DNA of 64,000 nucleotides from Longimicrobiales bacterium (GTDB lineage Bacteria; Gemmatimonadota; Gemmatimonadetes; Longimicrobiales; Gaopeijiaceae): positions 2,848,001 through 2,912,000 of the forward strand of contig OZ220732.1 of NCBI GenBank assembly GCA_965116905.1, read 5' to 3'. The position numbers were made by a program, and so were the translations under genes. Shown in pieces: positions 23,636 to 33,354 of this stretch. Numbering within the stretch: the first letter of the stretch is position 1; every line of letters starts with the position of its first letter. The notes beneath the pieces were generated by a model. The model was not told the DNA's origin. It saw only the letters and a program-made list of their open reading frames with translations, and made no database searches.

Positions 23636-25699
<2,064 letters not shown>

Positions 25700-26966: not shown

Positions 26967-27006
26967 CCGGCCCGCCTCAGTCCGCTCGGTAACCGGCCGC
27001 CTCAGT
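26956..27006. repeat. Two-copy direct repeat (26/25 nt) containing the stop codons of both convergent genes
   Basis: CCGCTCGGTAACCGGCCCGCCTCAGT (26956-26981) followed by CCGCTCGGTAACCGGCCGCCTCAGT (26982-27006). Confidence 0.9.
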
Positions 27007-28084
27007 CCATCGGGACGGTCCGCAGCACCTTTCCGGCCACGCGATCAAAGATCTCGTCGAGACTCGTCCCGGTCACCGTCAGGCCATGGTTCTTCAACCC
27101 CACAACGCACCGGTTGGGGTCATCGGCCTCGCGCACGATGTCCGCTACCGCCTTGCCGAGTTCGCGCGTGCCGCAGGGGTAGTTGAACTCCGTTGACGGA
27201 ATCCCTTCCATCCAGCCGTGGAAGTGCAGGATCGCGCCGATCCCCGGGTGCTCCCGGTAGATCATCCAGTGCTCGATCGCATCGACGGAGACGCGCCTGG
27301 GCTCCACGGCCGGCGGGTGGCTCACGACCATGGCGTTCCGTTCGGCGTCATAGTCCTTGACCATGAGAATGTCGCGACCGATTGCCCGCAGGTTCGATTT
27401 GTCGACCCCGCTGGCGCTCATCCAGAACCACTTGTCGTCGAAGCGGGCCGAAACGTTGCCGTAGGAAAGCCCGCCGATGCCGAAGATCCGCTTCACGTGC
27501 CGGAAGTCGCGTGGCGTCAGAACCTCGTCCATGGGGAAGGGCGCCGGCAACAGGTCCAGTTCGTCCAGTTTCCTGCCGGCACGGTAGATCGACCGGGTGA
27601 TGTCGTCCCCGTCCCACAATTCCTTGGGAAGATCCGGCTGGAAGGCATTGTCGATGACCAGCGTCGAGGAGGCCATGGGCTCGATCCGGGCGTAGACCCG
27701 CTCGAAATAGGCCCCGGTCTCGGCCTTGCCCGGCACCACATAGTGGCCTTGCTCCATCGTAATGAAGTGGGCGTCCGGGTCCCCGCTGGACGACGGAATC
27801 AGCCCCACGGCCAGATTGGCCAGCGCACGGAGCAGCGTGGGATAGCCCTGCACGATGTGGTCCGTGAACGGAACCGGGAACTCCGTGACCGCGCAGACGA
27901 AAACGGCCTGTGCCTTCCTTCGAAACGGCTTCGGCTGCCCTTTCGGAAAGAAGTTGAAGATCAGCTTCGCTTCCTCGGACCGGGCGGTGTAGCGGTGCCC
28001 CTCCGCCTCCATGACCCTCCGCAGCCCCCGGGAGAACCACCGGAACGTGTCGCTGTCGGGCGATCCGACGAAAGCAAATGTCAT
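27002..28084 (-). CDS. Class II aldolase/adducin-family protein with an N-terminal extension
   Basis: YGNVSAR, MSASG, SVDAIEH, AILHFH, GLKNHG zinc-binding pattern in the C-terminal half. ATG at 28084. Confidence 0.85.
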   Translation of the reverse strand: MTFAFVGSPDSDTFRWFSRGLRRVMEAEGHRYTARSEEAKLIFNFFPKGQPKPFRRKAQAVFVCAVTEFPVPFTDHIVQGYPTLLRALANLAVGLIPSSSGDPDAHFITMEQGHYVVPGKAETGAYFERVYARIEPMASSTLVIDNAFQPDLPKELWDGDDITRSIYRAGRKLDELDLLPAPFPMDEVLTPRDFRHVKRIFGIGGLSYGNVSARFDDKWFWMSASGVDKSNLRAIGRDILMVKDYDAERNAMVVSHPPAVEPRRVSVDAIEHWMIYREHPGIGAILHFHGWMEGIPSTEFNYPCGTRELGKAVADIVREADDPNRCVVGLKNHGLTVTGTSLDEIFDRVAGKVLRTVPMD

Positions 28085-28260
28085 GGAAAGGATATCCTCG
28101 GTGCATGGAGTTCGCGAACCGTACAAAAGGTTCACACTAAGCGCGAGAACGCAACCCCTCGCAAAGCGGCCGTCGCTGCGCCGTGGCGTCGGACACTTCA
28201 CGCCGTGGCCTCGAACACTTCACTTTGTGACGCGTCTCTGGCTACATTTACCCCACCATG

Positions 28261-28311
28261 TCCCGCTCCGCCAGGGAAGCGGAGCCCGTCACCACACGCG
28301 GTCCGAGGGAG
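28261..28311 (+). ncRNA. S6:S18-type ribosomal leader (autoregulatory cis-RNA)
   Basis: TCCC (28261-64) can pair with the SD GGGA (28307-10). Inner hairpin GCTCCGC-CAGGGAA-GCGGAGC (28265-28285) is followed immediately by CCG (28286-88), matching the known architecture of the S6:S18 leader. Confidence 0.65.
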
Positions 28312-28321
28312 TTCCCATCGC

Positions 28322-29059
28322 ATGAGAGCGTACGAAATCGTCTACATCCTGGATTCTGCACTGGAACGGGAGGCCGTCGACGCGAAGCTCGACGCCTTCC
28401 ACCAGGTGCTTGGCGGTGACGTCACCGCCATCGACCATTGGGGTGTCCGGCAGCTGGCCTACCCCATACGGAAGTCGAAGACCGGCTACTACGTGATCGT
28501 CCATGTGGACGCCGATCCCACTGCCCTTCCCGAGTTCGAAAGGGTGGTCAAGCTGGACGAGGAGACCACCCGGTATCTGGTCGTCGTCAACGAAGGCCAG
28601 CCCACGACCGGTGCTTCACTGCTGGCGGACCGCCCCCCTCCGCCGAAGCCGGAAGACGATGGGGACGAGGCCGGGGACGGTGAGAGCGGCGGCGAGAGCG
28701 GCGGCGGTGAAGCCGGCGAGCGCGCGGGCGGGAACGGCGCGACCGGAACCGGTGAGGCTGCCGAGGCCTCGGCGGGCGACGCCACCGAAACCGACCAGCC
28801 CGCCGAACCGCCGCAGTCGACCGGTCCGCCGGAGTTTTCCGGGGCCCGGGGGCGCCGCCGCCGCCACGAGGGGCCGCCGATCGTGCTGCTCAACTACAAG
28901 GACGTGACGACGCTGGCCCGCTTCCTGACGGAACAGGGCAAGATCCTGCCCAAGCGAACCACCAAGGTCTCGGCCCGCTTCCAGAGGCGGCTCGGCACCG
29001 CCGTCAAGCGCGCGCGGCACATCGCCCTTCTCCCGTACATCAGGGATCACGAGGCCTGA
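28322..29059 (+). CDS. rpsF-rpsR: Fused 30S ribosomal protein S6-S18 (bS6, acidic Gly/Pro/Glu linker, Cys-less bS18)
   Basis: N-terminal MRAYEIVYIL...WGVRQLAYPIRK...GYY is S6. C-terminal NYKD...FLTEQGKILPKRTT...QRRLGTAVKRARHIALLPY is S18. One continuous 245-aa frame, directly upstream of rplI. Confidence 0.93.
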   Translation: MRAYEIVYILDSALEREAVDAKLDAFHQVLGGDVTAIDHWGVRQLAYPIRKSKTGYYVIVHVDADPTALPEFERVVKLDEETTRYLVVVNEGQPTTGASLLADRPPPPKPEDDGDEAGDGESGGESGGGEAGERAGGNGATGTGEAAEASAGDATETDQPAEPPQSTGPPEFSGARGRRRRHEGPPIVLLNYKDVTTLARFLTEQGKILPKRTTKVSARFQRRLGTAVKRARHIALLPYIRDHEA

Positions 29060-29063
29060 GGTC

Positions 29064-29519
29064 ATGAAGCTGATTCTGCGCGAAACCGTCGCCAGCCTGG
29101 GACAGGCCGGCGATGTCGTAAACGTGAAGCCCGGATACGCCCGCAACTACCTTTTGCCGCAGGGACTGGCGTACATGGCCTCGGCGGCCAACATCCAGCG
29201 GATCGAGGAGGAAGCCGTCCACCGGCAGGAGCGGATGCGCCGCGACTACCTGGAAGCCAACCGCCAGGCCTCGCAGCTGGAGGAAGTCACCGTGTCGGTG
29301 TCGGCGAGAGCCGGATCCGAGGGGCAGCTGTTCGGGTCGGTCAACGCCCGCGATGTCTGGAGTCTCGTTCAGGAGGCGGACATCGACTTTGAACTGGACA
29401 AGCGGGCCATTCTCCTCGCCGAGCCGATCAAGAGCATCGGCGAGCACATGGTGCCGGTGCGGCTGCAGTCGGGGGTGGAGACGGAGATCCGGGTCGTCGT
29501 GGAGGCCGAAGAAGGTTGA
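29064..29519 (+). CDS. rplI: 50S ribosomal protein L9
   Basis: LGQAGDVVNVKPGYARNYLLPQG, GQLFGSV, PIKSIG. Confidence 0.98.
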   Translation: MKLILRETVASLGQAGDVVNVKPGYARNYLLPQGLAYMASAANIQRIEEEAVHRQERMRRDYLEANRQASQLEEVTVSVSARAGSEGQLFGSVNARDVWSLVQEADIDFELDKRAILLAEPIKSIGEHMVPVRLQSGVETEIRVVVEAEEG

Positions 29520-29893
29520 CGGCTCCCCGGGCGGCCTCGGATACGCACCCGCACGTCCGCAGAGCCGTCCGCTACGCCCTGGAGAGGAAGGCGACCGAAG
29601 TCACGCTCCTCGACCTGCGTGACATCTCGTCGGCAACGGACTATTTCGTCATCGCCACGGGCCGCTCCGATGTACAGGTGCGGGCGATCGCCGAGCACAT
29701 TGTCGACAGCGCGAAGCGGGATGGGGCCCGTCCCGAGCACATCGAGGGCCTCGACCAGGGGCGCTGGGTGCTCCTGGACTACATCGACTACGTCGTGCAT
29801 GTCTTCCATCCGGCCGTGAGGGAGTTCTACCGGCTGGAATCGCTGTGGGGAGACGCGGTCGCAACCGTGTTCGGGCAGGACATGACGCAATGA
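29516..29893 (+). CDS. rsfS: Ribosome silencing factor RsfS (Iojap)
   Basis: ERKA, TDYFVIATG, WVLLDY, VHVF, REFYRLESLW. Confidence 0.95.
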   Translation: MTAPRAASDTHPHVRRAVRYALERKATEVTLLDLRDISSATDYFVIATGRSDVQVRAIAEHIVDSAKRDGARPEHIEGLDQGRWVLLDYIDYVVHVFHPAVREFYRLESLWGDAVATVFGQDMTQ

Positions 29894-32800
29894 GGCTCAA
29901 GTCGTTGGAGCTGCGTGGGTTCAAGTCCTTTCCCGATCCGACCAAAGTCACATTCCACGACGGGATCACGGCGATCGTGGGCCCCAATGGCTGCGGGAAG
30001 TCCAACATCGGCGACGCCATCCGCTGGGTCCTCGGCGAACAGCGTCCCACCGCGATTCGCGGCGCCAGGATGGAAGAGGCGATCTTCCAGGGGACGGTCT
30101 CGCGCCGGGCCCTCAACAGGGGCGCGGTGTCCATGGTGGTCACCAACGAGGACGGTGCGCTTCCGACCCCGTTTCAGGAGGTGGAGATAGGCAGGACGAT
30201 CTACCGGGACGGGGGCAGCTCCTATCGCCTGAACCGCTCTCCGTGCCGCCTGCGTGACATCGTGGACCTCTGCCGGGACACGGGCCTCGGGGCGAATGCC
30301 TACTCGATCATCGAGATCCGGATGATCGACGCCATCCTCTCGGAGCGCACCGACGAGCGGAGAGCGCTCTTCGAGGAGGCGGCGGGGATCGGCAAGTACA
30401 AGGACCGCCGCCGCGCGGCGATACGGCGACTGGAGACTTCCGAGGCGGATCTGCAGCGCCTGGAGGACGTGATCGGCGAAGTCCGCACCAAGGTGCGCTC
30501 GCTGGCCCGGCAGAAGGGCAAGGCCCAGCGTCACCGCGAGTTGCGCGCTAGGCGCCTGGCGGTGGAGATCGCGGTTGTGGGCTCCGACCTGGAGGAGATG
30601 CAGGCGCGCCTGACCCGGGTGGAACGCGAACTCGAACGCGACCACGACGAATCGGCCGGGATGGCGGCGCGCCTGGCGACCGCCGAAGCGGAGCTGGAGC
30701 GCGCCCGGCTCGCGCATGTCGAGGCCGAGAAGGTTCGCGTCGACGCCGCGGGGCGGCTGGACGCGGTGCGGACCAGACTGGCCAGGGTCGAACAGGAAAT
30801 CGCGGTGGCGGGGGAGCGGATCGGGAACGGCAAACGCCGTCTCGAGCAGATCACCGGTGAAGAGTCGTCCCTGGCCGCATTGAAGGCGCGGTCTGCGGAC
30901 GAGATCCTGACGCTGTGCCAGGAGCGGGACGAATGTCAATCGTCGTTGACATCATGTAAGGCAGAGTTGACATCGCGTCGACGCGCGGCGGCCGAAGCGA
31001 GGGGCCGCATGGAGGTGGCCCGCGACGAACTGGCGGTGGTGGAGCGGCGCAGCCGCGAGATCGCCAGGGCGGTCGCCCGGGTCGAGGGGGACCTCGACAG
31101 CGCACGCCTCCAGGCGGCCGAACTGGACGGCAGGCTCGAGCGCCTCACGGCCGACTCCCGGGCCGGAGCCGGGGCGCTCAGGGAACTTCGGTCGCAGGGA
31201 GATCTGTTCGTCGACCGCAGCAAGGACGCCTCCCGGCAGGTTGACCGCGCACGGCGCGACCTTGAACGGTCCCGGCGCCGTGAGACGATGCTGCGTGACC
31301 GGTTGCGGGGGGCCCGCGCAGCGGAATTGGAAGCCCGGACCCGCGTCGCGGCTCTCGAAACCGAGTTTGCGGCCGTGCAGCGCATGACGCTCGCGGAAGA
31401 GGGCGCAGAGGCGGTCGCCGCGGACGCGGCGGAAGCCTTCCCGGACTGCGTCGTGGGAACGCTGTCGGACTACGTTCAGGTACAGGGCGGCGCCGCGCGA
31501 ACCGTTGACGACGCCCTCGCCCGTTTCGGTCTCGCCCTGTTGGTCGGGAGCGGCGACGATGCCGAGCGCATCAGCCGCTGGTACCGGTCGGAGGCGGGCC
31601 GGGCCGCCCGGCTTGTACTGCTGCCCATGGAGGCGGTCCCGGAGCCGGAAGGCGCTCTGCCGCCGGGCGTGACCGCCGCGGGGGAGGGAGCGCCGTGGGT
31701 ACGCGCGCTGCTTGGCGGCGTCGCGTTTCAGGCACCGGGCTGGACCGACCTCCGGGGAGCCGTGCACCTGGTGCCGGACGGCGGCGCGGAGGGTCGGCTG
31801 GAGCGAAGGGAGCGCCTGGACGGGCTGGAGGCCGACGTACGGAAGGCCCGCGCCGAACTGGACGAGGCGAGCCGGGTCCGGAGCCACGTCGAGCGGGAGA
31901 GCCGCAACTGCGAGGGAGACGTCGATGCCCGGACCGAGGCCCTGCTGTCCAGCCGTGATGCGGCGAGGGCCGCCAGGGCGGAGGCGGAGGTTCAGAGCGG
32001 CCGCAGACAGCAGCTCGCGCAACATCAGGACGAGCTTGCGAGGCAGCTGGAGGGTACGCGCGCCGCACGGCAGCGGGCGGGACAGCGAGCAGCCGAGGCC
32101 GATGCGGAGAGGGCAGGGCTGCTCGAAGAGGAGAAGGCGCTGAGCGCGCGGCTGGAGGAATTGCGCTCGCTGCACGCGGCCGTCGACGCCGAATGGGAAC
32201 AGGCCCGCAACGCGGAATCGGAGACGGCGATCCGTCTTGCCCGCCTCGAAGGCGATTTCGAGCGCCTCGGCGACCGGATATCGGATGCAGAGAAGACGGT
32301 GGCCCGGACGGGGGACCGGATCACCGGGCTTGAACGGGAGGCGGAGTCCCATGAAAAGGAGATTGCCCGGGTCCGGGACGAGCGGGAGCGCGCGCTGACG
32401 GGGCTGGAGGACGTCTTCCGGCGGCGCGACGAGCTGCAAGGTGTACTCTCGCACCAGGACCGCCAGCTGCAGGCGGCGTCGGCCGAGGTGCTGAAGGTGG
32501 AGCGCAGCGTCGGCGAGATTCGGGACCTCGAGCGCACCTCGGTGGACCGGAAGCACCGGCTCGAGCTTGAGCGTCAGGACTTGCGGAATCGGGCTGCCCG
32601 GATCGGCGAGCGTCTCGAGACCGAATGGGGACGCCCGCTGGAGACGCTCCTCGATGAGGTCGAACCGGCGGAAGGCGACGCGGAAGAACTGCGCGACGAG
32701 CTGACCGACATCACGGCACGTCTCGCGCGGATCGGACCCGTGAATATGCTGGCGGTCGAGGAACACGAGGAAGAAAGCACGCGTCTGGACTTCCTGATCG

Positions 32801-33354
32801 GGCAACAGGAGGACCTGATGTCCGCACGCGACGACCTGCGGGCGGCCATACGGCGGATCAACGCCACGGCGACCGAGCTCTTCATGACGACGTTCGACGC
32901 GATCCGCGAGAACTTCCGGCGGACGTTCGAACATCTGTTCAGCGGAGGAGAAGCCAATCTCTGGCTTGCGGACGCGGACGACCCGCTGGAGTCACGCGTG
33001 GAGATTCACGCGGCGCCGAGGGGCAAGAAGACGCAGCGAATCGATCTGCTTTCCGGGGGGGAGAGGGCCCTCACCGCCCTTTCTCTGCTCTTCGGCATCT
33101 ACCTGGTCAAGCCGAGTCCGTTCTGCGTCCTGGACGAGGTGGACGCGCCTCTGGACGAGTCCAACATCGGCCGTTTCGTTCGCCTTCTGCAGGGCTTCAA
33201 GGCGGACACCCAGTTTGTCGTCATCACCCACAACCCGTGGACCATCGAGGCGGCCGACTGGATCTACGGCGTCACGATGGAGGAGCCGGGGGTGTCTTCG
33301 ATCGTGGGAGTGCGGCTCGAGGGACGCACGGAGGCCGCGGGTACGGCAGCTTGA
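29890..33354 (+). CDS. smc: Chromosome segregation protein SMC
   Basis: GFKSF, Walker A GPNGCGKSN, FEEAAG, long coiled coils, GPVN, LSGGE signature, LDEVDAPLD, ITHN, GVTMEEPGVS. Confidence 0.96.
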   Translation: MRLKSLELRGFKSFPDPTKVTFHDGITAIVGPNGCGKSNIGDAIRWVLGEQRPTAIRGARMEEAIFQGTVSRRALNRGAVSMVVTNEDGALPTPFQEVEIGRTIYRDGGSSYRLNRSPCRLRDIVDLCRDTGLGANAYSIIEIRMIDAILSERTDERRALFEEAAGIGKYKDRRRAAIRRLETSEADLQRLEDVIGEVRTKVRSLARQKGKAQRHRELRARRLAVEIAVVGSDLEEMQARLTRVERELERDHDESAGMAARLATAEAELERARLAHVEAEKVRVDAAGRLDAVRTRLARVEQEIAVAGERIGNGKRRLEQITGEESSLAALKARSADEILTLCQERDECQSSLTSCKAELTSRRRAAAEARGRMEVARDELAVVERRSREIARAVARVEGDLDSARLQAAELDGRLERLTADSRAGAGALRELRSQGDLFVDRSKDASRQVDRARRDLERSRRRETMLRDRLRGARAAELEARTRVAALETEFAAVQRMTLAEEGAEAVAADAAEAFPDCVVGTLSDYVQVQGGAARTVDDALARFGLALLVGSGDDAERISRWYRSEAGRAARLVLLPMEAVPEPEGALPPGVTAAGEGAPWVRALLGGVAFQAPGWTDLRGAVHLVPDGGAEGRLERRERLDGLEADVRKARAELDEASRVRSHVERESRNCEGDVDARTEALLSSRDAARAARAEAEVQSGRRQQLAQHQDELARQLEGTRAARQRAGQRAAEADAERAGLLEEEKALSARLEELRSLHAAVDAEWEQARNAESETAIRLARLEGDFERLGDRISDAEKTVARTGDRITGLEREAESHEKEIARVRDERERALTGLEDVFRRRDELQGVLSHQDRQLQAASAEVLKVERSVGEIRDLERTSVDRKHRLELERQDLRNRAARIGERLETEWGRPLETLLDEVEPAEGDAEELRDELTDITARLARIGPVNMLAVEEHEEESTRLDFLIGQQEDLMSARDDLRAAIRRINATATELFMTTFDAIRENFRRTFEHLFSGGEANLWLADADDPLESRVEIHAAPRGKKTQRIDLLSGGERALTALSLLFGIYLVKPSPFCVLDEVDAPLDESNIGRFVRLLQGFKADTQFVVITHNPWTIEAADWIYGVTMEEPGVSSIVGVRLEGRTEAAGTAA
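30933..30974. repeat. AT-rich tandem 21-bp imperfect palindromic repeat inside smc
   Basis: ATGTCAA-TCGTCG-TTGACATC (30933-30953) and ATGTAAG-GCAGAG-TTGACATC (30954-30974). Confidence 0.7.

Follow-up and report, generated by a model that had tools for sequence, protein, structure and literature searches.

In the bacterial ribosome, core proteins are regarded as single chains from single genes, and bS6 and bS18 normally pair as separate chains encoded in the canonical order rpsF-(priB/ssb)-rpsR-rplI. In the window analyzed here, a whole stretch of 64,000 nt of a sponge-associated Longimicrobiales bacterium, both proteins lie in one reading frame, which raises the question of whether this bacterium makes them as a single chain, and if so, how such a chain arose and how it differs from the usual pair. 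We consider it probable that the locus carries an inherited, family-wide fusion that is made as one uncut chain, packs like S6:S18, arose by a single loss of a stop codon and regulates its own synthesis.

The 245-codon open frame at 28322-29059 (+) has its only Met at residue 1, in agreement with the first-pass annotation, which had proposed a single 245-aa ORF containing both bS6 and bS18, with no ATG before the S18 part (Table 1). Both halves scored well above the cut-offs with the Pfam profiles (Ribosomal_S6 at aa 4-88, 82.5 bits, cut-off 27; Ribosomal_S18, PF01084, at aa 190-237, 71.5 bits, cut-off 21) as well as with the NCBIfam models TIGR00166 for S6 (69.1 versus a cut-off of 42.9) and TIGR00165 for S18 (73.5 versus 38.75). 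When stand-alone rpsF and rpsR paralogs were sought in the whole genome (4.2 Mb in one contig, 97% complete), the S6 and S18 families each gave a single match, and both matches lay in the fusion. On the other strand, a divergent 399-aa gene at 27002-28201 (-) harbors a class II aldolase/adducin domain at its C-terminus (aa 244-328) after an unassigned N-terminal part, while the frames at 23636-25699 (+) and 29845-33354 (+) presumably encode a membrane ion-pumping pyrophosphatase and an SMC protein, which they resemble.

Table 1. Features of the fused locus and its leader (window positions).
Feature	Position	Strand	Basis
rpsF leader RNA, likely S6:S18 autoregulatory element	28262..28311	+	core pattern, covariation
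Leader outer helix CCC/GGG, holds SD-like GGGAG	28262-64/28307-09	+	covariation
Leader hairpin	28265-28285	+	covariation
Family-type extra hairpin CCGU/ACGG	28286-28301	+	also in split G121
Unpaired CC	28303-04	+	rpsF_leader description
Fused rpsF-rpsR gene, 245 aa, the genome's sole bS6 and bS18 source	28322..29059	+	profiles, genome search
bS6 domain, aa 1-90	28322..28591	+	PF01250 aa 4-88; structural match to bS6 chains
Conserved S6 tail (EGQPTTGASLLA), aa 91-102	28592..28627	+	alignment; shared with split relatives
Variable acidic Gly/Ala/Glu/Asp/Pro tether, aa 103-167	28628..28822	+	alignment, pLDDT 48-64
Conserved junction motif GPPEFSGARGRRRRHEGPP, aa 168-186	28823..28879	+	conservation in 110 fused genes
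GAGGGG and in-frame GTG, not a conserved start	28868..28885	+	110 fused genes compared
bS18 core, aa 187-245	28880..29059	+	PF01084 aa 190-237
rplI (bL9), next operon gene	29064..29519	+	PF01281, PF03948
rsfS, ribosomal silencing factor	29516..29893	+	PF02410

An open frame of this kind might simply be an assembly or base-calling artefact, and protein databases do contain artefactual S6-S18 read-through calls (e.g., P0266, P0277, P0282 and P0311). However, contigs from three public runs (X1, X2 and X3) cover the gene without a stop or a frameshift, X1 being possibly the window's own source sample and the X2 contig having a 12-nt in-frame deletion within the linker. Moreover, 110 independent loci are fused, and the S18 junction has been remodelled (see below). 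The distribution of the fusion rules the artefact out, with a residual probability that we regard as negligible. The public runs with substantial word shares come from sponge metagenome or from coded organisms, according to their labels. Raw reads of a further run, X21, gave no match to the gene. Run X2 bears a metatranscriptomic label; its coverage runs evenly over 20 kb, as that of DNA would, and takes in 30 of 30 bins at a depth of ~19-37 outside a few peaks, and thus it offers no evidence of transcription.

The same fusion was sought in related genomes and MAGs, as the first-pass annotation had advised, and was found in all 27 genomes of the same genus and in 75 of the family's 80 other genera, for each of which one genome was read, plus further loci. 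Among the 119 family loci read, 110 encode S6 and S18 within a single open frame, four are cut by contig ends and five are not open, namely, those of two truly split genera (G121 and G114), one foreign-looking contig and two single-frameshift copies of the fused type. The foreign-looking locus (L145 in G108) is a distant S6/S18 pair 454 nt apart with 32% and 39% identity, the sole copy in a 60% complete bin, and to judge from its sequence it is probably a foreign contig in that bin. The two frameshifted copies, one with a single inserted base relative to three relatives (G157) and one with a net frameshift in the linker (G180), still have sequence of the fused type and seem to be errors or isolated lesions. 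In addition, the gene of G077 is of the fused type and broken across two contigs, and the sequence of G120 is too short for judgement.

Outside the family, all 17 loci read in the two sister families are split, and for the remaining 29 of their 46 loci the search table gives either two matches or a stop. In a 301-genome sample of the phylum, which includes the unpublished genome G409 (no conclusion depends on it alone), the 24 loci read from other families of the class are likewise split, and every full-length match outside the family contains a stop among the 150 of 542 matches listed. In another search, the Calditrichota and other non-Gemmatimonadota matches listed are all split, and the named records listed with the fusion are Longimicrobiales or Gemmatimonadota MAGs, including 'bin94' (L065) with 66% identity. 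The accessible part of PMC11651109 places the genus Bin94 under f__UBA6960 (its Table S5, where 129 occurrences equal 129 genomes assigned to Gaopeijiales) and describes a cultured member, Gaopeijia maritima; the family with the fusion is thus probably UBA6960/Gaopeijiales.

Automatic annotation hides the fusion, which is named 'S18' by NCBI and 'S6' by JGI. Short 'S18' proteins in databases begin at internal sites in the fused frame or are fragments; for instance, P0164 and P0169 (NCBI-sourced, 59-64 aa) begin, by sequence, at internal Ile codons of the open fusions L177 (G081) and L179 (G117). Such short internal S18 calls can mislead marker-gene and completeness counts.

The segment joining the two domains had been described in the first-pass annotation as an acidic linker of ~85 aa. 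This description fits aa 103-167, a stretch of 65 aa with 17 D/E whose sequence is unconserved and predicted to be disordered, whereas aa 168-186 form a conserved basic motif that functionally belongs with S18. The first 20 residues after the S6 domain (aa 91-110) are predicted by AlphaFold2 with a pLDDT of 85-89. The tether varies from 23 to 165 aa across the family, always in frame, and the fused proteins are 206-345 aa long, with a median of 237 in the window's genus versus 216 elsewhere. In the 110 fused genes, the junction motif has the consensus PPEFxGxRGRRRR-[HVMI]-[ED]GP, in which the two prolines are kept in 108 and 106 genes, F/Y in 108, RRR in 108-109, G in 109 and the last P in 108. 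Since every synonymous codon is used, the motif is conserved at the amino-acid level, and its position is that of Met1 and the CxxC zinc knuckle in the S18 of split relatives. The split S18 proteins of G121 and G114 (L144 and L146) start with MPPPK or MAPPK; speculatively, such a start could be the ancestor of the PP in the fused motif. In the S18 core, K229, R230 and R232 are invariant in all 84 aligned sequences, and the KRAR spacing suggests that they correspond to K60, R61 and R63 of E. coli bS18, basic residues of which K60 and R63 bind an rRNA CC according to an excerpt of PMC4647458.

Translation of the gene probably begins at the S6 start and yields a single uncut chain, a reading that has to be weighed against two others. 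First, S18 might be made separately by initiation at an internal start codon, the open frame being incidental. The first-pass annotation had pointed to GAGGGG and an in-frame GTG as a possible start for a short S18, and both are present as described (28868-28873 and 28883), with GAGGGG 9 nt ahead of the GTG; another candidate is an M/V codon six places upstream. It also speaks for internal initiation that databases hold short S18 calls from such starts, and that the ancestral rpsR SD lay in acidic-tail codons, as the junctions of split loci indicate. However, a start codon occurs at the GTG position in only 11 of the 110 fused genes and at the M/V position in 38, together with an SD-like word in eight and one, respectively, and in 46 of the 110 none of ATG, GTG and TTG occurs within the 30 codons that lead up to the core. 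GTG accounts for 9 of the 28 Val codons at its position versus a 41% background, and is thus no commoner there than expected, while the GAGG word also lies upstream in 59 fused genes without a start codon, because it encodes the conserved Glu-Gly. Furthermore, the upstream motif is conserved as protein and is readable only from the S6 start, and internal initiation would not explain why the S6 stop is lost in all 110. The caveat is thereby largely removed, and we hold internal initiation to be very improbable.

Second, the chain might be a precursor that is cut at or near the conserved PPEF motif into separate mature S6 and S18 proteins, much as the protease Prp processes the bL27 precursor. 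A sharply conserved motif after a disordered linker is indeed what protease sites can look like. On the other hand, the motif continues for ~17 residues and passes into a basic run of the sort that S18 N-termini have, other S6-S18 fusions are without it, and the Prp family (PF04327) has no match in the 97% complete genome, in a search in which 3 of 14 controls match. Cleavage is therefore in our judgement unlikely, although less so than internal initiation.

Several lines of evidence suggest how the fusion may have arisen. The fused sequences fall on one side of a branch in the trees of S6 (SH-aLRT 89), the S18 core (98) and L9 (99; 46 fused rows, with G121 and G114 missing), and G121 and G114 join them in the S6 tree (SH-aLRT 92); these trees have a Gemmatimonadaceae root and few columns, and leave out most same-genus rows and Calditrichota. 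The fused group is also recovered at 97/92 in a small S18 tree; in a smaller S6 tree, the fused rows are not one group (three changes, poorly resolved), and an S6 tree with Calditrichota outgroups placed the root inside the fused rows with a long-branch warning and was rebuilt without them. Together, the family-wide fused loci and the trees with one fused group support the earlier proposal of an evolved fusion instead of a single miscalled stop. The best split match of the fused S18 core is a split Gemmatimonadota S18 in 101 of 108 cases, and hence the S18 half is native.

The split genes of G121 and G114 are separated by only 3 nt, from the S6 TAG to the S18 ATG, with both in the same frame, and therefore the loss of one stop suffices for fusion; the S6 stop and the S18 ATG are in frame in 10 of the 19 split loci. 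Accordingly, it is likely that the fusion arose once, early in the family, when the in-frame stop between the abutting native rpsF and rpsR would have been lost, and the acidic S6 tail would thereby have become the tether, as the first-pass annotation had supposed and as these junctions bear out. That annotation also took the tether to fix S6 and S18 at a 1:1 stoichiometry, which may be a role of the fusion. Many other split Gemmatimonadota loci (L231-L259 and L217-L221) also have the S6 stop and the S18 ATG in frame, 0-3 nt apart, and occasional read-through at such junctions would give a fused product.

The fusion coincides with the loss of the zinc site of S18. As stated in the portion of PMC11791143 at hand, the CX2C...CX2H motif of bS18 binds zinc in the ribosomes of M. 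tuberculosis and M. pneumoniae. In the family and its two sister families, the CxxC..C..H ligand set is present in 0 of the 110 fused S18 sequences (three fused rows were missed by the ligand pattern, and the same Cys/His loss was read directly from their sequences) versus 19 of the 19 split ones. In the window's S18, S217 and F220 replace the zinc-ligand Cys and His, and the His ligand is Phe in all 110 fused proteins. We propose that, on the same branch as the fusion, the zinc knuckle gave way to the conserved PPEFxGxRGRRRR-x-EGP peptide and the His ligand to the invariant Phe, that the covalent link may have made zinc dispensable, and that the loss of S18's own start would then have locked the fusion in.

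The order of events could also be the reverse, with a zinc-saving C- form of S18 appearing first and the fusion following as a near-neutral accident, the tether having no role in replacing zinc. Several observations are consistent with this order: 6 of the 24 split S18 sequences of other Gemmatimonadota families lack some or all of the ligands although they are unfused, in-frame junctions leave many lineages one mutation away from fusion, and the length and sequence of the linker drift freely. However, split zinc-free S18 is absent from the family and its two sister families, where all 19 split proteins have all four ligands, and CxxC is found in 0 of 41 other fusions (see below). The Cys motifs are also kept in this genome's L36 and S4, which speaks against a general zinc purge. 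By the motifs that we assume for these proteins, L33 is Cys-free, L28 has one Cys, L32 has a degenerate Cys set, and L36 and S4 have full Cys motifs; the five genes sit near 3822366, 3822565, 2896590, 1944221 and 1945214 of the genome contig. We regard the zinc-first order as a possible but rather doubtful alternative to zinc loss accompanying the fusion. Since zinc-poor split S18 occurs in 6 of 24, the evidence that fusion and zinc loss are connected comes down to a single event in this family. The six split loci with partial or full ligand loss are L230, L246, L247, L251, L253 and L259.

AlphaFold2 predicted the whole chain, from an 84-row alignment, with a pTM of 0.71 and a pLDDT above 87 for both domains and 63-80 for the motif; a single-sequence fold of a short-linker member gave a pLDDT of 47. 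The two domains are predicted to sit together as S6 and S18 ordinarily do on the 30S platform, and the acidic linker would loop out, but such a packing can stem from likeness to solved ribosomes. Fold searches, which barely probe the S18 half, returned bS6 chains (e.g., 8cwo_F with Z 11.3, rmsd 1.5 and 93 aligned residues), and no PDB chain matched both halves among the best 60 of 113 PDB sequences. We take PDB entries 1G1X and 7K00 to represent the bS6:bS18 heterodimer of the 30S platform. The fusion shares with the canonical pair both domains, the rpsF-rpsR-rplI order, the S6 fold and the S18 K/R/R residues; however, the canonical heterodimer is made from two genes, whereas here there is one frame, with an S18 without its own start, no priB/ssb in between and a new junction peptide. 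The fusion would be expected to work like the bS6:bS18 heterodimer, although at the gene level it is not two-chain.

Three known systems offer partial parallels. Like the C- forms of bS18, the fused S18 has lost its Cys ligands, whereas its split relatives carry CX2C...CX2H (C+); but in the RpsR1/RpsR2 pair of M. tuberculosis the C- form is a second paralogue, while here the native sole copy is remodelled in place and joined to S6. In human mitoribosomes, an extract of PMC11791143 reports that bS18m and bS6m are bridged by a [2Fe-2S] cluster near the S18 Cys motif; the same two proteins thus gain an extra link in the same region, but that link is a metal bridge between two chains and this one is a peptide tether with no Cys, so that the likeness is an analogy only. 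In Bacteroidetes, the available text of PMC7797042 describes sequestration of the anti-SD by bS21, bS18 and an extended bS6, which, as here, involves lineage-specific additions to bS6/bS18. Sequestration of the Bacteroidetes type was rejected for this genome, as it uses SD, its anti-SD is canonical and bS21 is present: of 1,485 ATG starts from a rough prediction, 35% are preceded by SD-like words versus 10% of internal ATGs, a 3.4-fold difference with a peak at -11.

The upstream region retains a leader RNA of the kind bound by the S6:S18 pair. In the section of PMC4647458 that we could consult, the rpsF_leader consists of an SD-containing helix, a conserved hairpin and an unpaired CC, and binds S6:S18; all three elements are present here (Table 1). 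Unlike the known rpsF_leader, this one has an extra CCGU/ACGG hairpin, which occurs across the family including the split G121 and is not evident in the sister-family leaders inspected, and no Rfam family matched the leader in 27800-29700, two weak below-threshold matches being taken as chance. The core pattern of the leader is found in 106 of 111 fused-type loci. In 47 rows hand-picked from 83 with short loops, a preselection by hairpin pattern that favours the hairpin, 94.5% of the cells of the three-helix leader are paired, with 33 double-sided changes, a result reached by 0 of 500 shuffles, while slid controls gave 34-49%. It seems plausible that, with the leader retained, the fused chain would go on repressing through it the mRNA that encodes the chain.

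Fusions of S6 to S18 are not confined to this family. When 1.84 billion representatives were searched with a profile, 150 proteins were listed, 143 of them new, and among these at least 56 have both domains, six being of the family type and 50 not. Nine of the 50 are in our judgement read-through or chimera artefacts; in the 41 retained, CxxC is absent before the core (four rows misplaced by the pattern were read by eye). These fusions have the same domain order as the family's but different junctions without the PPEF motif. Of 20 non-family fusions looked up, 17 are single-member clusters at 90% identity. Some related records are fused alike (P0264 and P0389; P0336, P0409 and P0411), and P0409 occurs on 30 contigs. 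In a metagenome scan with P0264, 0 of 80 loci were fused (69 split and 11 with S6 only), and therefore the non-family fusions are known from protein records only. In the ESM Atlas, there are two-domain clusters of 61, 55 and 88 members whose commonest phylum is Pseudomonadota, with scores under 0.9, and Gemmatimonadota clusters of 162, 55 and 65 members. A second profile search was swamped by plain S6, and several of its two-domain matches were read-through artefacts with an intact S18 N-terminus.

A common origin of the family's fusion with five Proteobacteria-like fusions is rejected (p-AU 9.5e-11), while one with four Bacteroidota-like fusions gave an AU p of 0.054, which is not significant on 56 columns; in a free tree, the latter nest in Bacteroidota at 100/97. 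These comparisons suggest that S6-S18 fusions have originated at least twice, and probably three or more times.

We found no description of an S6-S18 fusion in the literature, in a search that lay mostly outside subscription journals. The architecture is already contained in automatic database labels, and the ancient family-defining variant itself is real. Some 80 genera with a single-chain S6-S18, together with repeated origins, imply that heterodimer formation during assembly of the 30S platform can become intramolecular, through a fusion that recurs between neighbouring genes whose products must pair. The fusion is also a natural experiment on the purpose of the S18 zinc site and a ready single-chain reagent for studies of assembly and autoregulation, and the zinc-for-tether swap and the new conserved peptide are features worth testing. 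More tentatively, S6-S18 fusion might be a way, not yet described, in which ribosomes have evolved repeatedly, with a tether replacing the S18 zinc site, and in this family the PPEF...RRRR peptide might bind rRNA or mRNA beside the anti-SD region and confer a lineage-specific property in initiation or assembly.

Among the other records, P0248, P0254 and P0256 are three more S6-S18 fusions, all of them single-member clusters, with Gemmatimonadota-like halves, different junctions and a Cys-free S18, and were not found among the matches listed for the phylum sample. Finally, P0407, a two-domain S6-S18 UniRef record filed under the tsetse fly, has its internal S18 start intact, and resembles symbiont DNA across which a eukaryotic gene caller has read.
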